Below, piece by piece: positions 7,477-22,324 of a DNA stretch of 64,000 nt (within the stretch, counting starts at the first letter, position 1; every line of letters begins with the position of its first letter). The stretch comes from an uncultured Candidatus Saccharibacteria bacterium (GTDB lineage: Bacteria; Patescibacteriota; Saccharimonadia; Saccharimonadales; UBA7683). Location: the NCBI GenBank assembly GCA_964632215.1, contig CAZWBG010000001.1, positions 313,336 through 377,335 on the forward strand, read 5' to 3'. The translations under genes and the position numbers were made by a program. The notes below the pieces were generated by a model. The model saw only the letters and a list, made by a program, of their open reading frames with translations. It did no database searches and had not been told where the DNA came from.

Positions 7477-9303
7477 CTAGGTTTTGTTTTGACGCTTTCG
7501 CTTGTTTGGGTCAATTTCTCGTTTGCGTAGGCGCAAGTTTTTTGGAGTTACTTCTAATAGTTCATCATTTTCGATGAAATCGAGACACTGTTCTAGGCTC
7601 AGTGGTGTTGGTGGGGTCAGTTGGACTACACCGTCAGATGATGTGCTTCGCATATTGGTTAAATGCTTTTCTTTCACTACGTTGATATCCATGTCTTCAC
7701 CACGAGAGTTAAGCCCAACCACTTGGCCAGCATAAACTTTGACACCTGGGCCGATGAAACAAGTTCCACGAGCTTCGGCATTTTGCAGAGCGTAGGCAGT
7801 CGTTGTACCAGTCTCAAAAGCAATGAGTACACCGTTTCGCAGTTGCTGCAAAGCAGGACCCTGTGGTTGGTAACCAGTCGTTAAGCTATTCATAATAACG
7901 GTACCCTTGGTGTTGGTAATAAGAATGTTACGCAGACCCAGCAACGCACGAGTTGGTAGTTCGTAGATCAATTTTGTAGCACCCTGAGAAGTCGTAAACT
8001 GCTCTTTTAAGGTTGCTCGACGTGTCCCAAGCTCCATCTGAATTGCACCAGCATGTTCAGCTGGCACTTCAATAATAAGCTCTTCGACAGGCTCAAGTAT
8101 TTTGCCATCTTCTTCTTTAGTTACCACTTGTGGGCGGCCAACTTCAAATTCAAAGCCTTCGCGGCGCATAGTTTCTATAAGTACAGAAAGATGGAGTTCA
8201 CCTCGTCCAGCAACCAAGAAGCCAATACCGTCTTCTTCAACCCGCAGGCCAATATTAGTCTCTAATTCGCGCTTGAGACGTTCGCTAATTTGGCGAGAAG
8301 TTGTAAATTCGCCTTCCAGACCCTTAAATGGACCGGTATTAGGACCAAGGTACACTTGTAGAGTTGGCGCCTCTACCTCAAGTACTGGCAAGGCCTCGGG
8401 CTTTTCGCTATCTGCTACTGTTTCACCAATCTGGATATCCTTCAGACCAGTTAGTTGCACAATATCACCTGCAATACCACCTGGTACCTCAAACTTACTA
8501 ACACCGCGACTCATAAAGACTAGCTCTACTTTAGCTTTTGTAAAACTGCCGTCTTTTTTGCACACCGTTACTATTTGTCCGGCCGCAACTGCGCCCTGGC
8601 TAATACGACCAATGGCGTACTTACCCTTAAAACTGTCGTGTGCTAAGGCAGTCACGAGCATCTGGAAAGGAGCCTCGGCATTAACGCGTGGAGCAGGAAC
8701 TTCGTTCATAATCGCCTCAAAAATAGATTCAAGATCGCCAGCTTCGGTTGAGTCGGCTGGTGGTGTTGTCCAGGCTTTACCTTCACGGCCAATTGCATAG
8801 TAAACTGGGTAGTGCAGTTGGTCTTCGTGAACAGCTAACTCTAAAAAGAGGTCAGCTAGCTCGTCTTCTACTTCTGTAATACGACTACCTGGCTTGTCAA
8901 TCTTGTTAATAACGACGATCGGTTTAAGACCGCCAGCTAGAGCTTTGGTTAATACAAACTTAGTCTGTGGCATCGGACCCTCTTGAGCGTCTACAATCAA
9001 CAAACAGCCATCGGCCATGTTCAGTGTTCGCTCTACTTCACCAGAAAAATCGGCATGTCCTGGAGTATCGATGATATTAATGCGGTAATCGTTATGCTGA
9101 ACGGCGGTAACTTTGGCAGTAATGGTAATACCACGCTCTTTTTCTTGGTCGCCACTATCCATGATGAGCTCTTGAGTCATCTCAGCTTGGTTGTCGCGGA
9201 AAGTCTGTGATTGCTTAAGCAACCCATCAACCAAAGTAGTCTTACCATGGTCAACGTGAGCAATAATAGCAATATTACGAATTTTTTTTGGGTCTTGTTG
9301 CAT
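7477..9303 (-). CDS. typA: translational GTPase TypA/BipA
   Basis: Motifs [23 protein letters not shown] and NKID, with TypA-type C-terminal domains. Start moved to ATG 9303, which has GAGGAGG upstream. Confidence 0.9.
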
Positions 9304-9415
9304 AGAAAAAGCGCCTCCTCGGCGCACACTAGATACTAATATACGTTATAGCCCAGTATAACAGATCTGGAGACTTTTGGCTATAGCATATTGAATCAAG
9401 TGTGTGTAGGTTTGG

Positions 9416-9622
9416 TTAGTCTTCGATGTTGCGTAAAATTACAAAACTAATCATTACAATAGCAATGGCAGTACCGATACCAAGTACAAAATCTGGCCAC
9501 AGTTCAGTACCATAACCAAGCGTAAGTCCAATGCTCAAACCTGCCAGACCTACAATAGCCGTAAATATACCACCGCGGATACCGCTGAGCTCGGGTTTCT
9601 TTTGTTTTTTCTTGGTTGCCAT
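9416..9622 (-). CDS. small two-TM membrane protein
   Basis: 68-aa ORF with a basic N-terminus and two hydrophobic segments. Confidence 0.45.
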   Translation of the reverse strand: MATKKKQKKPELSGIRGGIFTAIVGLAGLSIGLTLGYGTELWPDFVLGIGTAIAIVMISFVILRNIED

Positions 9623-9715
9623 GTTTGTATTCCTTTTTTTAGGTTGTTAAAACTACATCGAATTATACGCTCTATCTGATGTGGTCGTCAAATCAAAAGG
9701 GTTTATACTAGGTGT

Positions 9716-10168
9716 ATGAGCGAACGAGCTCCCGAGAGTGAACCGTGCATAAAGGTATTCATTGCCTTTGAGGCGGTCTGCCCGAAGAGCGAAGACAGCT
9801 GGAAACAGGTACTTCGAGTACACCATGTCCTGGATCAAAGATTAAATGAAAACGGTAAAGCCTGGCAAACTAACCTATCACCACAACCAGAAGACGAGTT
9901 GCTAAGGGCAAGATTTGGACTGAAGTCAGTCCACACCTTCACAGAAGGGCAACAGGAAGACATTCTTGTCTACCTGCTTCTACAGCTAACTCACTGTCTT
10001 GAAGAAGAACACTTGCCTGCCTCTATTGAGACTGCAACTATGGGACTTCTTAATGTCCGAACTCACGATATCCGTATCTACCATGAAGACGAGACTATAC
10101 CGCAGTTTCAGCAAACACTCGAAGATTTTAGAAATGTCGACCCCGAAGCCTTTCCCGGGCAAGAATAA
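9716..10168 (+). CDS. hypothetical protein
   Basis: 150-aa ORF filling the gap before rarA. No recognised motif and the start is uncertain. Confidence 0.35.
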   Translation: MSERAPESEPCIKVFIAFEAVCPKSEDSWKQVLRVHHVLDQRLNENGKAWQTNLSPQPEDELLRARFGLKSVHTFTEGQQEDILVYLLLQLTHCLEEEHLPASIETATMGLLNVRTHDIRIYHEDETIPQFQQTLEDFRNVDPEAFPGQE

Positions 10169-10195
10169 GTGTAGCCGTGCGTTATAATAAAGGGT

Positions 10196-11434
10196 ATGGA
10201 GCAACCACTGGCCGAACGAATGCGGCCGAGAACACTGAAGGAGTTTATTGGACAAAATCATCTTACGAAACAAGGTGAGATTATTCGTGAGATCATCAGC
10301 AAGAAACAGCCAACTTCTCTTATTTTCTGGGGGCCACCAGGTAGTGGTAAGACAACACTGGCTCGTATTATCGCCAGTGAACTAGAAACAGATTTTGTAG
10401 AACTATCGGCCGTTACGGCTAGCAAGAAAGATGTGCTAGCCGTAATAGAAAGAGCTCGCCGCAATTGGGTTTCAACAGACCCACAAGATACCCAGACTGA
10501 CTTATATCAAACAGTTAATGAGGCTGCACCTCAATCCGAATCTAGTAAGCGGATGATTCTATTCGTAGATGAAATTCACCGTTTTAATAAGGCTCAACAA
10601 GACAGCTTTTTGCCACATGTCGAGAGTGGTCTGATTACTCTGATTGGCGCCACGACCGAAAACCCTAGTTTTGAGGTCATTACGCCACTACTTTCACGCT
10701 CCCGAGTGATAGTACTCCAACCGCACAACAAAGAAGATATGATCAGTATTATTAAGCGAGCACTCAAGCTAGAAAAAGCCAGCAAGCGCATTACACCCAC
10801 GGCGATTGATCTGCTGGCCGAGATGAGTGGCGGTGATGCCCGAATAGCCCTTTCTAATTTGGAGCTAGCCTTACAGCTGAGCAAGAAAGTAACGCCAGAA
10901 GTTATCAAAACAGCGGCCCAAAAACGCCTACCGGGCTATGACAAAGGGGGCGAATACCATTACAACTTGGTGAGTGCCTTTATAAAAAGTATGCGCGGCG
11001 GTGATGCCAGTGCTTCGCTTTATTATTTGGCTCGCATGTTGCAGGCTGGTGAAGATCCTAAGTTTGTAGCGCGACGAATGGTTATATTTGCCAGTGAAGA
11101 CATAGGTCTAGCAGGTAATGGTGCGCTCAATCTTGCGGTTTCAACTTTCTTGGCAGTTGAGCGAATTGGGATGCCCGAATGCCAATACAGCCTTTTTCAC
11201 TGTGCAGCAGCGCTTGCCAAGGCCGAAAAATCCCGCCAGCTAACTGATGCCATGAGCTTAGCACTACAAGCAGCTAAAGATTTCCCCGAAGCACCCGTGC
11301 CGCTACATCTGCGCAACGCTCCAACAAAGCTCATGAAGGACCTCGGCTACCAAAAAGGTACCAAATGGGAAGCTGGCTTTAAGCACCCCGAGGGCTTCCT
11401 GCCCGAAGAACTCGAAGATCTTAAACTATTTTAA
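10196..11434 (+). CDS. rarA: replication-associated recombination protein A (AAA+ ATPase)
   Basis: Contains PRTLKEFIGQNHL, Walker A GPPGSGKTT, Walker B FVDEIHRFNK and the MgsA C-terminal region YYLARML..GEDP. Confidence 0.9.
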   Translation: MEQPLAERMRPRTLKEFIGQNHLTKQGEIIREIISKKQPTSLIFWGPPGSGKTTLARIIASELETDFVELSAVTASKKDVLAVIERARRNWVSTDPQDTQTDLYQTVNEAAPQSESSKRMILFVDEIHRFNKAQQDSFLPHVESGLITLIGATTENPSFEVITPLLSRSRVIVLQPHNKEDMISIIKRALKLEKASKRITPTAIDLLAEMSGGDARIALSNLELALQLSKKVTPEVIKTAAQKRLPGYDKGGEYHYNLVSAFIKSMRGGDASASLYYLARMLQAGEDPKFVARRMVIFASEDIGLAGNGALNLAVSTFLAVERIGMPECQYSLFHCAAALAKAEKSRQLTDAMSLALQAAKDFPEAPVPLHLRNAPTKLMKDLGYQKGTKWEAGFKHPEGFLPEELEDLKLF

Positions 11435-16729: not shown

Positions 16730-17042
16730 AAAGTTCCCTTGAAAATTATTAAATGATGCTTATGGCAATAAGTGTAGCATATTTATCTACGCGTCTATTC
16801 ACCGTCTTGTAAATTCGTCTGTAGTAAACCTCTACATATAGTGCTTACGCTACCTATGGCACACCACCCCTAGTACATGTTGATAGAAAGTTAAAAAAGT
16901 AATAAAAAACTCTTTACAAACTGCTTATATGGTTGCTAGTATGGTGACAAGCTCAGGGAAACAAAAATCTAAAATAAAAAAGATCTTCCCACGGTGAGCG
17001 TTCCATCACCACAACAACTTATTATATTTAAAAGACGATCCC

Positions 17043-17067
17043 CAAGGGTCGTCTTTTATCTTCCCTG
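17043..17067. terminator. bidirectional intrinsic terminator downstream of trmD
   Basis: AGACGATCC-ccaa-GGGTCGTCT flanked by an A-run and a T-run. Confidence 0.65.
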
Positions 17068-17091
17068 AAGTTCAATCAGTATTTTATAAGT

Positions 17092-17733
17092 TTATTTATT
17101 TTCTTGGCGCCACTTAGCAATTTCGCTGTGGTTACCGCCCAATAACGTTTCGGGTACCTGCATACCGCGGAACTCTGCTGGCCGAGTATAATGCGGTGCT
17201 TCAACTGTTTCATCATCTTCTACAAAGCTTTCTATCTCAGCACTGGTTTCACCACCCAGAACTCCAGGCAACAACCGCACAACGCTATCTGCAATTATCA
17301 ACGCCGCCAGCTCACCACCAGTTAGTACGTAATGACCAATGCAGATCTGCTCGTCTACCACACTCATAATTCGCTCGTCGTAGCCCTCGTAGCGCCCACA
17401 AATGATTATGAGCCCGTGATCCGCCTTTGCATATCTATCGGCTACAGACTGCCTCCAGAGCGTGCCGCGTGGTGTTGCAAGCATCACTTTGGCGGTTGGA
17501 TCTTGAGATTTAGCATGCCCAACTGCTTTTATAAGCGGCTCCACCATCAAAACCATGCCGTCTCCCCCGCCGTAAGGTGTGTCATCTACTTGCTGGCGCG
17601 GACCAAGGCCAAAATCACGTAGTTGAATGATCGCAAACTCTGCTGCTTTAATATCTTGGGCTTTGTAAAGCATTGAGCTATTTAGGTAGCCCTCTACCAT
17701 TTCTGGAAATAATGTAATAATCTGTATTTTCAT
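17092..17733 (-). CDS. trmD: tRNA (guanine37-N1)-methyltransferase
   Basis: Contains ITLFPEM...DDTPYGGGDGMV...ICGRYEGYDER...YVLTGGE. Confidence 0.9.
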   Translation of the reverse strand: MKIQIITLFPEMVEGYLNSSMLYKAQDIKAAEFAIIQLRDFGLGPRQQVDDTPYGGGDGMVLMVEPLIKAVGHAKSQDPTAKVMLATPRGTLWRQSVADRYAKADHGLIIICGRYEGYDERIMSVVDEQICIGHYVLTGGELAALIIADSVVRLLPGVLGGETSAEIESFVEDDETVEAPHYTRPAEFRGMQVPETLLGGNHSEIAKWRQENK

Positions 17734-17755
17734 CTTATATACAGTGTAGCTTGTA

Positions 17756-17784
17756 TTGACATTTTTTACAATATCTGCTATAAT
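17756..17784 (+). promoter_or_regulatory. consensus sigma70 promoter TTGACA-17-TATAAT (cassette A)
   Basis: Exact consensus hexamers with a 17-nt spacer, divergent from trmD. Confidence 0.7.
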
Positions 17785-17788
17785 CCCA

Positions 17789-17863
17789 TTAATCTTTTGG
17801 AGTTTTCAGGAGATAGCACCGTGTGCGGAAATATAAGTACGCACCAAACAACCAGGAGAAGAT
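17789..17863 (+). promoter_or_regulatory. conserved 5' leader RNA, copy 1
   Basis: 17789-17852 is 64/64 identical to 18467-18530. It contains the hairpin GUGCG-N12-CGCAC and three GGAG-type boxes. Confidence 0.6.
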
Positions 17864-18262
17864 ATGTTGGATACAGTCACGGAGTCCATCGATCTCGCTG
17901 AAGTCACCCCGGAACAGGAAGTACGAATCAGTATTGATGACAAGCACGCCTTATTGTTTCGTATCGACCCCCCTTCCATCTTCGATGAAAGCTATGTTTT
18001 CGGTATTGAGATCTCACGTCTCAAGCTGATCATGGGTGCATCCGAAGGTCACGTCGGTGGCCAATTCATCGACCTCAATGAGGTCAATATGGATGACATA
18101 ATCGAGGTAGTGGGGTTCATCGTTCCGCCAAGTCCCCATACCAGTGTGCAGCGCAACCTGGAGATCGGAAGAAGCTTCTATATCACGGGCGTTGGCTACG
18201 AGTACCTTCGACAAGAGACGCGCGGAACCATCACCTCCATCGAGGTATATGAAAGGTTTTAG
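17864..18262 (+). CDS. small hypothetical protein, cassette A (paralog of 18542-18955)
   Basis: 132 aa with AGGAGAAG as RBS. Shares IEV..IVP.S..T.V...L..G......ITG.GY......G.I.SIEV with cassette B. Confidence 0.6.
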   Translation: MLDTVTESIDLAEVTPEQEVRISIDDKHALLFRIDPPSIFDESYVFGIEISRLKLIMGASEGHVGGQFIDLNEVNMDDIIEVVGFIVPPSPHTSVQRNLEIGRSFYITGVGYEYLRQETRGTITSIEVYERF

Positions 18263-18291
18263 ACTTCCTGTATACCTTTTCACCCTGGTTG

Positions 18292-18344
18292 GGGCAGTTG
18301 TATCTAAGTAGCACATTTGGTGCTAACAAACGATATGACTGCCC
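18292..18344 (+). other. 13-bp-stem bipartite hairpin preceding hammerhead 1
   Basis: GGGCAGUUGUAUC pairs with GAUAUGACUGCCC, enclosing the inner hairpin UAGCAC-AUUUG-GUGCUA. It covaries with copy 2. Confidence 0.7.
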
Positions 18345-18347
18345 AAA

Positions 18348-18402
18348 ATCACTTCAGTAATTGTGTAATTACTCTGATGAGTTCAAAAGAACGAAAAGTG
18401 AT
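18348..18402 (+). ncRNA. type III hammerhead ribozyme, copy 1
   Basis: AUCACUU C AGUAAUU-GUGU-AAUUACU CUGAUGA GUUC-AAAA-GAAC GAA AAGUGAU. All invariant core positions are present (C3-A9, G12-A14, A15.1-U16.1, C17, G10.1-C11.1). Predicted cleavage is between 18355 and 18356. Confidence 0.85.
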
Positions 18403-18432
18403 GTAAATGATTGATATGGTTTTCGGGTTATA

Positions 18433-18461
18433 TTGACTTATCTTGTAATATCTGCTATAAT
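18433..18461 (+). promoter_or_regulatory. sigma70 promoter TTGACT-17-TATAAT (cassette B)
   Basis: Starts 31 nt after hammerhead 1. There is no terminator between them. Confidence 0.65.
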
Positions 18462-18466
18462 TTAGC

Positions 18467-18541
18467 TTAATCTTTTGGAGTTTTCAGGAGATAGCACCGT
18501 GTGCGGAAATATAAGTACGCACCAAACAACTAGGAGAAATT
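18467..18541 (+). promoter_or_regulatory. conserved 5' leader RNA, copy 2
   Basis: Identical to copy 1 over 64 nt. Confidence 0.6.
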
Positions 18542-18955
18542 ATGCTGGCAACGCAGCAGGCTGTTGATCTTTCGACCTGCAACACGGATCAAGTTATACG
18601 TGTCGTATTCAGTGACAAAGACGGGTTCGGGTCCATCTTCGACTTGAGACTTAAGACACAAGACGACTCGTTCACCGTCAGCGATGACTACCTTACGGGG
18701 GTAGAAATTGCGGTTATTACGACCACCTTCGAAAGCATCGACCCTAAACCAGGTGGCCGCCACCTCAAGAGCAATGAAACCACACGCATGATCGAGGTCA
18801 CAGAGCTCATCGTTCCTGCGAGTGCCTACACCAACGTGTGTCGGCATCTAACAGTTGGTAACTCCTCTCTACCACTCATTACTGGCATAGGATACCTCAG
18901 GCTTGCAGACGAGATCCACGGATCCATTAAGAGCATTGAAGTCAGAGCAGCCTGA
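18542..18955 (+). CDS. small hypothetical protein, cassette B
   Basis: 137 aa. A diverged paralog of cassette A, at roughly one third identity by eye. Confidence 0.6.
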   Translation: MLATQQAVDLSTCNTDQVIRVVFSDKDGFGSIFDLRLKTQDDSFTVSDDYLTGVEIAVITTTFESIDPKPGGRHLKSNETTRMIEVTELIVPASAYTNVCRHLTVGNSSLPLITGIGYLRLADEIHGSIKSIEVRAA

Positions 18956-18980
18956 ACGCTCACAACATATCTCCTGGTCG

Positions 18981-19033
18981 GGGCAACCATGTCTAAACAG
19001 TACATTCGGTACTCGTAAACGATGTGGTTGCCC
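18981..19033 (+). other. 13-bp-stem bipartite hairpin preceding hammerhead 2
   Basis: GGGCAACCAUGUC pairs with GAUGUGGUUGCCC, enclosing the inner hairpin AGUAC-AUUCG-GUACU. Changes relative to copy 1 are compensatory. Confidence 0.7.
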
Positions 19034-19036
19034 AAA

Positions 19037-19091
19037 ATCACTTCAGTAATTGTGTAATTACTCTGATGAGTTCAAAAGAACGAAAAGTGAT
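19037..19091 (+). ncRNA. type III hammerhead ribozyme, copy 2
   Basis: Sequence identical to copy 1. Predicted cleavage is between 19044 and 19045. Confidence 0.85.
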
Positions 19092-19118
19092 GTGAGCACA
19101 AATTAGATAGAAACTAAA

Positions 19119-19145
19119 AGAACCCCGTAAGTGCAGGGTTCTTTT
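19119..19145. terminator. bidirectional intrinsic terminator (cassette B converging on the KH gene)
   Basis: AGAACCC-cgtaagtgca-GGGTTCT flanked by AAAA and TTTT. Confidence 0.6.
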
Positions 19146-19239
19146 ATCACATATAAAGCTCTCTAGTTTTCCTAGACTCGCAAGCGAGCTTTGGTTTTGT
19201 CATGTGTTTATTTTTGTTTGTCCGTGGTGAACATAAGAA

Positions 19240-19671
19240 TTATATATCAAGATCATCGAGGTCCGCAAGCTCTTTTCGAGTCTTTTCGGTTAGATTCTCT
19301 TCCTCGTTTTCCACAGTCTCATCTTGAAACTCCTCCACAGGCTTGTCATCAGTACTATCATCTGATGTAGTATCATCATCTTGAGCTACCGAATGGATAG
19401 GTGTAGTGGCACCACTGCCGCCATCACTATCAACAATCTTGAGGTTATAGCGAGCATCATTCTTTGTACCAAGCGCTCGTAGCAATGTGCGAATGCTCTG
19501 CGCCGTACCACCGCGCTTACCAATAACTCGGCCGAGATCGTCAGGAGCTACGGTAAGTGCCAAAAGTACACCTTTCTCATCAATAGTACGTTCGACAGAA
19601 ACTTCATCAGGGTTACTGACAAGAGCTTTTACTACAAATTCTACAAATTGCTGGTCAATGCTTGCTGACAT
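19240..19671 (-). CDS. KH-domain RNA-binding protein (KhpA/YlqC-like) with an acidic C-terminal tail
   Basis: Contains LGRVIGKRGGTAQSIRTLL, the GxxG KH motif. It sits directly downstream of rpsP, the conserved position. Confidence 0.8.
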   Translation of the reverse strand: MSASIDQQFVEFVVKALVSNPDEVSVERTIDEKGVLLALTVAPDDLGRVIGKRGGTAQSIRTLLRALGTKNDARYNLKIVDSDGGSGATTPIHSVAQDDDTTSDDSTDDKPVEEFQDETVENEEENLTEKTRKELADLDDLDI

Positions 19672-19772
19672 AAGGTCTCCTCTGTTAGATAACTTCTCAA
19701 TCTAGTGTAGCATAAAAATAAAAGCTGCCGAAAGATATACTCGGCAGCTCTACTATATTATGAAGTTCAGAT

Positions 19773-20282
19773 CTATTTCTTTGATTCTTTTTCTTCAGCT
19801 TCAGGCTTCTCTTCTGAAACTTCTTCTGTCTCTGGCTTAACTTCTGCCTCAGGAGCAACAACCTCTGCCGCAGGAGATTCGGCTACTTTAGCTGGAGTTT
19901 CTTCAACCACAACTTCTGTCACAACCTCAGCTGGAGTCTCGGCAACCTCTTCAACTACCTCTTCCTTGGGAATGTTTCGTCGAAGTTTTTCAGCATGCTT
20001 GATAGTCTTAGTCTTATCGGTTGCAGTCTTCTTAACCCAACCTGGTAGAGTAACTTTTTCTGATTCAAAAACACGTACCACACGGTCAGATGGTTGAGCG
20101 CCATGTGTTAGGTAATATTCAGCTTTTTCTTTATCAAGTGTGACTGCTTTAGTGTGCGGATCAAAACTACCTAAATTAGCTACTACACGGCCGCTGGTAG
20201 GCTGACGGTGAGATTCTTGTACGATTACTCGATATTGGGCGAGACCTTTACGGCCAACTCTTTGCATACGAATTGCTAACAT
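19773..20282 (-). CDS. rpsP: 30S ribosomal protein S16 (bS16) with an acidic C-terminal extension
   Basis: Begins MLAIRMQRVGRKGLAQYRVIV. Confidence 0.9.
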   Translation of the reverse strand: MLAIRMQRVGRKGLAQYRVIVQESHRQPTSGRVVANLGSFDPHTKAVTLDKEKAEYYLTHGAQPSDRVVRVFESEKVTLPGWVKKTATDKTKTIKHAEKLRRNIPKEEVVEEVAETPAEVVTEVVVEETPAKVAESPAAEVVAPEAEVKPETEEVSEEKPEAEEKESKK

Positions 20283-20334
20283 CTAAAAATTACTTCCCTT
20301 CGACAATATGAATTTAATAAAACAATCTTGAGTA

Positions 20335-20363
20335 ATTATACAGATGATGACCCCTAAAGTCAA
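20335..20363 (-). promoter_or_regulatory. sigma70 promoter TTGACT-17-TATAAT for rpsP
   Basis: Read on the minus strand. It starts 17 nt downstream of hammerhead 3. Confidence 0.6.
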
Positions 20364-20380
20364 CTGAGGTACACTACTTT

Positions 20381-20435
20381 GTCACTTTTCGCGTTTTTAC
20401 GCTCGTCAGAGTAACCGCACAGTTACTGAAGTGAC
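20381..20435 (-). ncRNA. type III hammerhead ribozyme, copy 3
   Basis: Minus strand: GUCACUU C AGUAACU-GUGC-GGUUACU CUGACGA GCGU-AAAA-ACGC GAA AAGUGAC. The core is intact (N7 = C is allowed). All three stems carry compensatory changes relative to copies 1 and 2. Cleavage falls after the C complementary to 20428. Confidence 0.8.
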
Positions 20436-20437
20436 AC

Positions 20438-20524
20438 GGGTTAGCGGAGAAAAAGATAATAGGGAGAGTCAGTATGAGCTGACATCGAATCCATATTATA
20501 GAACTTTTTCTACGACGCTACCCC
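20438..20524 (-). other. long imperfect GGG...CCC hairpin preceding hammerhead 3
   Basis: GGGGUAGCG pairs with CGCUAACCC, AGAAAAAG with CUUUUUCU, and AUAAUA with UAUUAU. CCUGG lies just upstream. Confidence 0.5.
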
Positions 20525-20587
20525 ATGACCTGGAATCTCCAGGGTTTTACTCGAGTTTAACGCTTCGAGCACGCGTAACGCCCTTAT

Positions 20588-20941
20588 CTAGGAGACTGTC
20601 TTGCTGTTGAGAATGATCTCTCGGACGACACCAGTTCTCCCATTGTTGATAAAAATGATACCGCCCACTCGGAATATCCGAGAGATAACGTTATGTTTAG
20701 GATATCGAGTGACAACACCATGTATGTCAGTGTCCGTCTGAATGGCAACACCGTTGATATTATCCCGAGCAATTTTCGGCTCCTTCACCGTGATGAAGTG
20801 CCAAGTTGAATTTTCCGTACACACGGTGACAACGTCACCGGGGTCAGTACTAGCGAAATCGAGTTCGACTTGACGTATACCATCTCGAACACGATTGTCC
20901 GAGAACCTTGCTACTCCGGATATCCCGCTATGTTCATCCAT
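20588..20941 (-). CDS. small hypothetical protein, cassette C
   Basis: 117 aa with GGAGAT as RBS. Only weak C-terminal resemblance to cassettes A and B. Confidence 0.55.
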   Translation of the reverse strand: MDEHSGISGVARFSDNRVRDGIRQVELDFASTDPGDVVTVCTENSTWHFITVKEPKIARDNINGVAIQTDTDIHGVVTRYPKHNVISRIFRVGGIIFINNGRTGVVREIILNSKTVS

Positions 20942-21019
20942 TGGATCTCCTGTCCAATAGTTATCTGTCAGCGTTTCTAACAGATATAAACATTCGCCGA
21001 ATGCGAATGTTCAATATAA

Positions 21020-21048
21020 ATAATACAATTTAAGTGTTATTGGGTCAA
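21020..21048 (-). promoter_or_regulatory. sigma70 promoter TTGACC-17-TATTAT (cassette C)
   Basis: Lies immediately after the rnc stop. Followed by a leader hairpin AACAUUCGC/GCGAAUGUU (20989-21011). Confidence 0.55.
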
Positions 21049-21049
21049 T

Positions 21050-21754
21050 TTATTTGGATTCGTAAAATTCAAGGGCTTCTTCGGCGGCTTTTTGTTGGGC
21101 AGCTTGTTTGCTGCTACCAGATCCTGAGCCTCGAAGCTGTGAGCCAATAAACACGCCAAGTGTAAAGATTTTGTCGTGATCAGGCCCGTCTTCAGAGAGC
21201 ACTTTGTACTGAGGCGTTTGATTGTCTTTCTCCTGCGCTACCTCTTGTAAGTAGCTCTTTGGGTCACGCCACGAGCCAGTTTCTAGAATTTGTGGCAAAG
21301 TAGCAATAATTTGAGCATCTATAAACAACTTGGCGTGGTCATAGCCTTTGTCTAGGTAAATAGCACCAACGACAGCCTCAAAACTATTGGCTAAAATCTG
21401 CTGACGGGCTCGATCGGTACCGCGTTTCTCTCCGCGGCTTAAACGGAGCATACTCTCGAAGTTCAATCTGGTAGCTGCCGCACCAATGCTCTCAGTTCGC
21501 ACTAAAGCACTGCGCCAGTTAGTTAAAATTCCCTCTGGCTCGGTGTAGGTTTTATACAAAAATTCGGTTACTACCAACTCCAGCACAGCATCACCAAGAA
21601 ACTCGAGACGCTCATTGTGTTCTTGAGCTGACTTTTTGTGTTCGTTAATGTAGCTACGATGCGTAAAAGCCTGCATTAACAGAGCGGGGTCTTCGAAGGT
21701 AAAGCCAAAATTGGCCTGGGCAAAGTCTTGGTAAGGTTGCGTATTAAGGTTCAT
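21050..21754 (-). CDS. rnc: ribonuclease III
   Basis: Contains NERLEFLGDAVLELV (the RNase III signature) and a C-terminal dsRBD. Confidence 0.9.
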   Translation of the reverse strand: MNLNTQPYQDFAQANFGFTFEDPALLMQAFTHRSYINEHKKSAQEHNERLEFLGDAVLELVVTEFLYKTYTEPEGILTNWRSALVRTESIGAAATRLNFESMLRLSRGEKRGTDRARQQILANSFEAVVGAIYLDKGYDHAKLFIDAQIIATLPQILETGSWRDPKSYLQEVAQEKDNQTPQYKVLSEDGPDHDKIFTLGVFIGSQLRGSGSGSSKQAAQQKAAEEALEFYESK

Positions 21755-21829
21755 GGTGTGTAGGTTTTTGGTTATCGACTATGGAACTCTTGCAACTTCA
21801 ATACTCGATAACCGAAAATCTCTCCTTTC

Positions 21830-22324
21830 TTATAGTTTATCCTGTCTAATTTGTTTCATGGCAAGTAACATTAACTTTTCAATACCTTCGTATTCAATCT
21901 TATCAAGCGCTTCATTAAACTTAAACCAGCTGATGCCATTCATCCATTCTTCTTTCACTAAATGGTCACTATCACCCAGGGCCTTCACTAAGAAAACGTG
22001 CATAGTCATGAGAATTAAGCTATTTTGGCGGCGGTAACGGAATTGAGTTTTACCTAAGTGGTTTAGGACTTTCATCTCCTGAAGTCCCGTTTCTTCATTA
22101 ATCTCACGCTCAGCAGTTTGCCGAGGAGTCTCACCAGGCTCAATATGACCTTTAGGAATAGTCCAGCGGTCTTTAGCATCTTGAGCAAGTAGGATTTCTA
22201 CGCCACCCTTGTCGTCGCGCCTAAATACCACACCACCGGCAGTCGTCTCGCGAACTACCTCTTGAATAGCAGGTTTGCGCTTGAAATACTTTTTAAATTT
22301 ATTGAATGGTTCTGGTGTTTTCAT
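21830..22324 (-). CDS. NUDIX hydrolase
   Basis: Nudix box GHIEPGETPRQTAEREINEETG. Confidence 0.8.
   Translation of the reverse strand: MKTPEPFNKFKKYFKRKPAIQEVVRETTAGGVVFRRDDKGGVEILLAQDAKDRWTIPKGHIEPGETPRQTAEREINEETGLQEMKVLNHLGKTQFRYRRQNSLILMTMHVFLVKALGDSDHLVKEEWMNGISWFKFNEALDKIEYEGIEKLMLLAMKQIRQDKL

Follow-up and report, generated by a model that had tools for sequence, protein, structure and literature searches.

The 64,000-nucleotide (nt) stretch considered here, hereafter the window, belongs to an uncultured Candidatus Saccharibacteria bacterium (GenBank assembly GCA_964632215.1, contig CAZWBG010000001.1, positions 313,336 to 377,335), and our subject is a set of three small stand-alone open reading frames (ORFs), A and B on the forward strand and C on the reverse, which are wedged among the housekeeping genes trmD, KH, rpsP and rnc and are each followed by a type III hammerhead ribozyme (HH1, HH2 and HH3). 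The three units, which we call cassettes, have the same plan, comprising an own promoter, a leader, one small ORF preceded by an AGGAG ribosome-binding site, a 3' hairpin and the hammerhead, and the three ribozymes lie within 2.1 kb, one per ORF. The cassettes, hammerheads, promoters and gene order described in an earlier annotation made from the sequence alone (the original prediction) were all found in place, as was the physical tie of each hammerhead to the 3' end of a single small ORF (Table 1). The neighbours in the window are rnc, rpsP, KH, trmD, a NUDIX gene, nusB, LeuRS and similar genes, and no integrase, reverse transcriptase or transposase was found by Pfam among the neighbouring genes adjoining the locus.

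Table 1. Features of the cassette locus, in window coordinates (P, promoter; aa, amino acids; bp, base pairs; UTR, untranslated region; MFE, minimum free energy)
Feature	Position	Strand	Remarks
trmD	17092-17733	-	Pfam
P(A), TTGACA-17-TATAAT, TG-extended	17756-17784	+	12/12 match; 82% identical to P(B) (repeat family D5)
Leader A, two conserved hairpins and AGGAG Shine-Dalgarno	17785-17863	+	95% identical to leader B (family D2)
ORF A, 132 aa, orphan cargo protein	17864-18262	+	32% identical to ORF B
3' hairpin A, 13-bp stem and apical hairpin, no U-tract	18292-18344	+	Consensus fold, compensatory changes
HH1, type III	18348-18402	+	Predicted cleavage after C18355; family model 76.4 bits
P(B), TTGACT-17-TATAAT	18433-18461	+	11/12 match; begins 30 nt past HH1
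Leader B	18462-18541	+	Repeat comparison with leader A; conserved hairpins
ORF B, 137 aa, ORF A paralogue	18542-18955	+	
3' hairpin B	18981-19033	+	Consensus fold; z = -4.85
HH2, type III, identical to HH1	19037-19091	+	Predicted cleavage after C19044; family model 75.4 bits
Bidirectional intrinsic terminator, common to cassette B and KH gene; edge of KH/trmD slot	19115-19146	.	Position kept in 4 related loci
KH gene	19240-19671	-	Pfam
rpsP	19773-20282	-	Pfam
P(rpsP), TTGACT-17-TATAAT	20363-20335	-	11/12 match; kept in relatives, directly after rnc stop codon there
HH3, type III, CUGACGA core	20380-20436	-	Predicted cleavage after C20428; family model 68.6 bits; inverted repeats I1, I2
Structured 3' UTR of cassette C, abutting HH3	20437-20526	-	MFE -29.7, z = -3.96
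ORF C, 117 aa, orphan cargo protein	20588-20941	-	27% identical homologue in L085
Leader C, AGGAG Shine-Dalgarno	20942-21019	-	5'-proximal hairpin 21013-20987
P(C), TTGACC-17-TATTAT	21048-21020	-	10/12 match; begins 1 nt past rnc stop codon
rnc	21050-21754	-	Pfam

The catalytic core is complete in all three ribozymes, which share the CUGAYGA...GAAA sequence, the A15.1-U16.1 pair, C17 and the type III topology. HH1 and HH2 have CUGAUGA...GAAA cores with UC at the cleavage site; relative to them, HH3 has a C at the variable position 7, and the changes in its stems I and II are compensatory. When scored against the Rfam family RF00008, whose gathering score is 48.5 bits, HH2 reached 42.8 bits and HH1 29.1 bits (a partial match), HH3 gave no match, and Rfam at its gathering thresholds finds no ribozyme in the window. 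A covariance model derived from 83 relatives (R1), in contrast, recognises the window hammerheads with E-values from 4e-21 to 1e-18 and detects no fourth copy within the 64 kb. A 17-mer common to the hammerheads occurs three times against 0.33 expected; a scan with the 17-mer TCACTTCAGTAAYTGTG of a collection of genome contigs that does not include the source genome gave 57 matches, all of them due to chance and none followed by a hammerhead core. The 90 nt on the 5' side of HH1 fold with a z-score of -4.4, and the consensus fold of cassettes A, B and their counterpart in another Saccharibacteria assembly (L066) recovers all three helices, with compensatory changes in 12 of the 38 pairs of the 3' module.

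The wider family was collected with the pattern CTGAYGAGNNNAAAANNNCGAAAAG, which has matches in seven phage contigs and at least 120 metagenome stretches, and the family statistics given below were computed among the matches listed, amounting to ~110 further hammerheads (109 or 107, according to the test). Almost all pattern matches are true hammerheads of a single geometry, in which stem I has 7 bp and a 4-nt UGYG-like loop, stem II 4 bp and an AAAA loop, and stem III 5-6 bp. Among the 83 relatives 96.5% of the pair cells are paired, compared with 34-43% in slid controls, and changes on both sides are seen in 299 cells versus 73 in shuffles, affecting 12 of the 17 pairs; stems II and III played no part in choosing the sequences, yet they covary. 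All three helices are thus supported by covariation, stems I and II being capped and stem III open. These features, together with the full catalytic core and the H17 cleavage site, are those of the type III hammerheads of RF00008, from which the window copies differ in scoring below the gathering threshold, in the case of HH3 in being missed altogether, and in belonging to a very stereotyped subtype, ~15 members of which likewise give sub-threshold RF00008 matches. Judged from sequence, the window hammerheads are real and under selection, and self-cleavage of HH1, HH2 and HH3 is predicted at the sites listed in Table 1.

What accompanies the ribozyme is equally regular. An upstream ORF lies on the strand of the hammerhead in the ~110 family members listed, with the distance from stop codon to core peaking at 100-130 nt, and the 90 nt ahead of the hammerhead are strongly structured (median MFE -35 kcal/mol, median z-score -4.3, z below -2 in 88% versus 11% of controls), this structure ending a median of 2 nt before stem III. 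The 107 upstream ORFs among the matches listed are nearly all singletons and mutually unrelated, ~80% of the family cargos have no Pfam domain, and the G+C content (GC) of a cargo is usually above that of its own locus (median difference 6.5 points). Different cargos have leaders and 3' modules in common, and the sole feature constant across the family is the 3' module, that is, the hairpin-hammerhead end of the cargo message. Since unrelated cargos have common leaders and 3' modules, the arrangement fits standard expression signals placed around variable genes. Many of the family loci are chromosomal and contain homologues of housekeeping genes of the window (Ddl, Mur ligases, MgsA, FAD oxidase); the names retrieved for some of them are Saccharibacteria oral taxon 955, with whose genome one related locus clusters, Patescibacteria and one Verrucomicrobiae metagenome-assembled genome.

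Some members of the family deserve separate mention. A Pfam domain of Tad4, an inhibitor of type I Thoeris, was found in three of the six members of one cargo family (L075, L101 upstream of 1137, L106, L129, L139 upstream of 1047-1097, and L172; best E = 3.9e-19), and the member in L139 has a chromosome-like setting between tRNA genes and Ddl/Mur ligase genes. AT-rich phage contigs (L068-L073, IMG/VR, 27-28% GC), and also L067, L071 and L126, contain the same hammerhead subtype, which in the phage contigs lies ~230 nt past a small gene with an SSB-like tail, DDLPF, and between co-directional genes. On the 254-kb contig Ga0193752_1000027 (L147) the cargo is a DUF4419 protein (E = 7e-57) and a neighbour protein is named Verrucomicrobiae bacterium in NCBI, such that, unless this contig is mis-binned, the cassette type extends beyond Patescibacteria.

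Returning to the window, P(A), P(B), P(C) and P(rpsP) rank as the four best sigma-70 matches within 17000-21900, and the leader hairpins of A and B are kept in L066 with compensatory changes in 4 of 16 pairs. The DNA of the hairpin-hammerhead regions of A and B is 86% identical and the promoters and leaders are likewise close, compared with the low identity of the encoded proteins (Table 1). In cassettes A and C the coding strand has no terminator-like site from the stop codon as far as the next promoter, nor is there one in the gap between HH1 and P(B) or that between HH3 and P(rpsP). An intrinsic terminator is therefore not the 3'-end signal of A and C, whose hairpins run into AAAAUCAC or GUGUCAC and not into a U-tract. 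Cassette B does have a terminator, but it lies past HH2, ~20 nt further on. On the opposite strand, a weaker promoter-like site for trmD (TTGTAA-17-TACACT) stands back to back with P(A) within 17734-17790 and ends 9 nt ahead of the trmD start; these sites may be in competition or under common regulation.

The cargo proteins themselves are nearly without relatives. The detectable outside homologues are P0124 in L066 for ORFs A and B and one protein on the related locus L085 for ORF C, at 27-35% identity. A search of ORFs A and C against an index of 5.8 billion proteins returned only the query itself; an exhaustive profile search added one true homologue of ORF A, P0124, and P0125 was discarded as a low-complexity false match. 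Comparison of ORFs A, B and C with Pfam, PHROG, PADLOC and PDB, and with phages by tblastn, gave no match, and AlphaFold models of the cargo, with predicted local distance difference test (pLDDT) values of 44 and 36, were unusable. The GC of the window cargo is 47-51% against 44% for the surroundings and that of the L066 cargo 62% against 43.5%; because the window cargo is only modestly GC-rich, a foreign origin is clearer for the relatives of the L066 type.

Comparison with other genomes links ribozyme and cargo more closely. The P0124 cassette of L066 is again divergent from trmD and retains the promoter, the two leader hairpins, the 13-bp 3' hairpin and the hammerhead, and the homologue of ORF C in L085 is likewise followed by a hairpin and a hammerhead of the CUGACGA type, but it occupies the slot past KH, whereas cassette C lies between rnc and rpsP. 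The original prediction had named as its counter-case related genomes carrying the same ORFs without ribozymes; the homologues in L066 and L085 instead retain the hammerhead, together with promoter, leader hairpins and 3' hairpin and with base changes that compensate each other, and since they do so at 27-35% protein identity, the ribozyme travels with its cargo.

The synteny comparison that had been proposed reveals clean presence and absence of cassettes at two slots. In the rnc/rpsP slot, which cassette C fills exactly in the window, from its own promoter to 16 nt past HH3, the relatives L066 and L064 have the conserved rpsP promoter 0-25 nt past the rnc stop codon, and L062 has a different ORF of 241 aa without a ribozyme. 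The KH/trmD slot holds two A-family cassettes in the window, one A-family cassette in L066, a C-family cassette in L085, nothing in L062, and in L064 a GC-rich 144-aa cassette with a hairpin and no hammerhead plus a GIY-YIG gene. Given relatives with no cassettes or with other inserts at both slots, cassettes have been gained, lost and moved; an inserted or duplicating unit, as had been suggested, fits, because the same cargo and hammerhead type occupies a different slot. The idea that the cassettes occupy the place of rimM and rplS fared differently. Both genes are indeed missing from the interval, but they are missing from it in all compared genomes, including cassette-free relatives, so that the cassettes did not replace them, and synteny rules this possibility out.

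Several further observations were made at these slots. The L064 cassette (ORF 9854-10288 on the reverse strand, flanks 9640-10400) has a promoter and a 144-aa ORF of 66% GC in a locus of 42% GC, and on its 3' side a long hairpin is followed by a terminator; the ORF matches phrog_8937, of unknown function, with E = 1.4e-16. A nearly invariant element of ~55 nt, AAAGCUCGCUUGCGAGUCU..AGAGAGCUUUAUAUGUG, lies 3' of KH in all five Saccharibacteria loci, with or without a cassette (window 19148-19200, reverse strand, plus the terminator 19115-19146; L064 9690-9790; L085 ~1040-1100; L062 ~9240-9320; L066 ~9350-9420). It is followed by an intrinsic terminator in the four loci whose alignment extends far enough; in L085 the alignment ends early, yet a terminator-like hairpin adjoins the element. 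The element might form part of a 3' UTR or be a small RNA. A -35-like hexamer, TTGACY, occurs at the cassette junctions and at the matching empty sites of cassette-free relatives in both slots (window 21046-21052, 20358-20363 and 17753-17761; L066 10578-10584; L062 ~9405-9415); at the empty sites it comes directly past the rnc stop codon in one slot, and in the other it reads GTATTGACA and lies ahead of trmD. Promoter capture, or a preference for inserting at this point, may account for its presence; a target-site duplication was considered and is not claimed, there being no consistent second copy past HH2 or the L066 hammerhead, nor at other cassette ends. Between rpsP and KH, inside a supposed single operon, is a terminator-like hairpin with a U-tract (19721-19751, reverse strand). 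The products of these two genes, S16 (169 aa) and the KH protein (143 aa), have long acidic low-complexity C-terminal extensions beyond the Pfam domains, which span residues 8-65 and 7-79 respectively; the tails of relatives are similar and of variable length. The best homologues of S16 bear the names Candidatus Saccharibacteria, Saccharimonadales or Nomurabacteria.

The leaders of the family are of more than one kind. RAGATH-10 (RF03147, gathering score 41.2) was recognised in L184 (8843-8928, reverse strand, 51.6 bits), L174 (203-284, forward strand, 46.9 bits) and L087 (4392-4468, reverse strand, 42.7 bits), in each case 450-600 nt upstream of the hammerhead and on the same strand; the window leaders give no RAGATH-10 match in 17000-21800 even at E <= 10. 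RAGATH-10-type leaders, also those of L075, L081, L172, L176, L096, L133 and others, carry a motif of 12-13 nt, UUGACAAGCAGAC, the reverse complement of GUCUGCUUGUCA, which is located just 5' of the hammerhead. Pairing of leader and tail has a z-score below -3 in ~19 cassettes; it is significant in many of the RAGATH-10 type and is not significant in the three cassettes of the window (z = -2.1, -0.1 and -1.3). The complementarity of UUGACAAGCAGAC and GUCUGCUUGUCA predicts that the processed message would form a 5'-3' panhandle.

How might these parts work together? We give about an even chance to the reading that the cassettes are autonomous, horizontally exchangeable accessory-gene units equipped with a portable hairpin-hammerhead 3'-end signal. 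Each unit opens with its own consensus promoter and a structured leader, contains one small cargo ORF, and closes with a very stable hairpin that lacks a U-tract and with a type III hammerhead, which would cut after transcription some 8-12 nt past the hairpin. In the type III topology the upstream RNA would keep just the 5' strand of stem III and, with cleavage at the 5' boundary of the ribozyme, the hairpin and a short tail would stay on the cargo RNA. The cargo message would thereby be freed as a discrete monocistronic RNA ending in this 3' hairpin and tail with a 2',3'-cyclic phosphate, and the ribozyme body with any read-through RNA would remain on a downstream fragment beginning with a 5'-OH. 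The same end would be made irrespective of whether a further cassette, a terminator, a convergent gene or the promoter of a housekeeping gene comes next, and the 3' module would on this account allow a cassette to occupy the tight intergenic slots of a small genome with its message uncoupled from the neighbours. We infer that the ribozymes cut in vivo, that a message with such an end is more stable and that this is the function for which selection has acted. Bacterial hammerheads have been proposed before to process transcripts into single-gene mRNAs (PMC3088659). Making a 3' end fits the co-directional, convergent and terminator-followed contexts alike; of the dual role envisaged in the original prediction, as transcript insulator or 3'-end maker, the provision of an end for the upstream message would thus hold in all contexts, and general insulation of the next promoter does not.

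Certain facts nevertheless sit uneasily with a ribozyme-made 3' end. HH2 and the L085 hammerhead precede ordinary intrinsic terminators within 20-100 nt, and because an ordinary terminator follows they are not needed merely to end the RNA; the L064 cassette, inserted in the same KH/trmD slot, manages with its 3' hairpin and terminator and no hammerhead at all. Hammerhead cleavage, furthermore, does not halt RNA polymerase, so that read-through transcription still reaches the downstream genes. It should also be borne in mind that the family statistics depend on one pattern, with AAAA in loop II, and on crude ORF calls.

Other readings place the purpose of the ribozyme elsewhere. We consider it unlikely that the hammerhead serves the downstream RNA, either by trimming read-through so as to give that RNA a standard 5' context or by creating a 5'-OH entry for a 5'-to-3' exonuclease. 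The close spacing reported originally is real, strong promoters beginning 30 nt past HH1 and 16 nt past HH3 without an intervening terminator, and it recurs, a consensus promoter-like site being present 7-46 nt past the hammerhead in 20 of 109 family members against a background of 3%, and tandem co-oriented cassettes being found at at least seven loci. It is a minority context all the same: half of the hammerheads face convergent genes (37 downstream genes are convergent and 37 co-directional), often no more than 15 nt from the gene end, and a terminator-like site follows the hammerhead in 8% of the family against a background of 4.5%. Insulation from the next promoter is not the general role, because HH2 and the L085 hammerhead have ordinary terminators after them; moreover, the own promoters of the downstream genes would yield their main transcripts free of ribozyme, and what is conserved alongside the hammerhead is the hairpin and ORF on its upstream side and no downstream feature. 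Still less do we favour a part in the mobility or copying of the cassettes, with the hammerhead marking the end of an RNA intermediate or releasing a circularised unit-length RNA in the manner of retrozymes or viroids. That the same slots are full or empty among relatives and the same cargo and hammerhead type appears in different slots would agree with such a part, as would the position of cassette B between HH1 and HH2, 689 nt apart, the similar tandems elsewhere, and the complementarity of the RAGATH-10-type leader motif to the pre-hammerhead sequence, which would join the RNA ends. However, circular or spliced products were sought at other bacterial clusters by Perreault et al. and none were found (PMC3088659), and leader and tail are not significantly complementary in the window. 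The A/B repeat unit, moreover, contains the untranscribed promoter (-35 to -10, family D5), which points to duplication at the DNA level; cassette C, L066 and L085 have a single hammerhead each, and the locus adjoins none of the enzymes of DNA or RNA mobility that were looked for.

The hammerhead could conversely lower or conditionally tune the expression of the cargo, by shedding a protective terminator or under the modulation of a factor that binds the hairpin or leader, a role we think very unlikely. There are precedents in the glmS ribozyme and in the 3'-UTR hammerheads of mammalian CLEC2 genes, which lower or tune expression; here cleavage by HH2 or by the L085 hammerhead would cut off the terminator hairpin that follows, and the conserved leader hairpins could bind a regulator. 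But in 88% of the family a much stronger hairpin stays at the new 3' end of the cargo, and the ribozyme, stereotyped and minimal in its geometry, has no aptamer-like extension.

Among known systems the closest are the clusters of hammerheads in bacteria and prophages that flank individual small non-conserved ORFs, as reported in 2011 (Perreault et al., PMC3088659). As in those clusters, several hammerheads lie close together, each beside one small gene of varying identity; the window locus differs in its chromosomal setting between housekeeping genes, with no integrase or prophage genes nearby, and in the make-up of its units, which have promoters of their own and conserved leaders and which end in an obligatory hairpin and just one hammerhead. 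The gene neighbourhood typical of bacterial hammerheads also served to define the RAGATH motifs, most of which are uncharacterised (PMC11061315). Cassettes with a RAGATH-10 leader have the same leader-ORF-hairpin-hammerhead architecture as those of the window, whose leaders, however, consist of two other conserved hairpins. Retrozymes resemble the locus in that tandem hammerheads can delimit a unit-length RNA, but the cassettes are protein-coding and mostly have one hammerhead, their repeat unit includes a promoter and does not coincide with RNA boundaries, and only cassette B is flanked on both sides. In integron cassettes, too, a conserved structured element borders single ORFs that vary; the window has neither an integrase nor an attC-type site, and its cassettes carry promoters matching the consensus at 10-12 of 12 positions. 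Phage morons, which are independent promoter-gene-terminator units inserted between conserved genes, share with the cassettes their autonomy as single-gene units, foreign base composition and variable presence, yet the 3' boundary of the cassettes is a ribozyme with a hairpin and not just a terminator, and their host is a cellular chromosome. RiboJ, a synthetic 5'-UTR ribozyme insulator that standardises the downstream message, also couples a self-cleaving hammerhead to an adjacent hairpin and makes expression independent of neighbouring sequence; in the cassettes the conserved partner is instead the upstream ORF with its hairpin.

The role of hammerheads in bacteria has been puzzling since their discovery there in 2010-2011, and a review of 2017 still treated it as an open question (PMC6155905); a literature search found no paper linking hammerheads with the biology of Saccharibacteria or Patescibacteria. 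With the window locus and its ~110 relatives a loose association of hammerheads and small ORFs becomes a defined architecture with exact predicted cleavage sites, and the locus offers clean cassette-free genomes for comparison along with a falsifiable prediction, namely a hairpin-protected 3' end bearing a cyclic phosphate. Since Rfam thresholds miss all three ribozymes of the window, hammerhead cassettes are probably under-annotated in the genomes of candidate phyla. A wider proposal, which we advance tentatively and think rather doubtful, is that exchangeable expression cassettes form a pool common to Saccharibacteria, other Patescibacteria and some phages, in which foreign ORFs are framed by standard RNA modules, a leader and the hairpin-hammerhead. 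The cargo of this pool is often GC-rich and includes at least one anti-defence family, that with the Tad4 domain, and its leaders are of the RAGATH-10 type or of the two-hairpin type seen in the window. If the proposal is correct, the ribozyme-made end would let cassettes sit beside or between essential housekeeping operons without polar effects, the leader-tail pairing of the RAGATH-10 type would close the processed message into a panhandle, and these organisms would possess a system of gene cassettes whose defining marks are RNA signals instead of a recombinase site.

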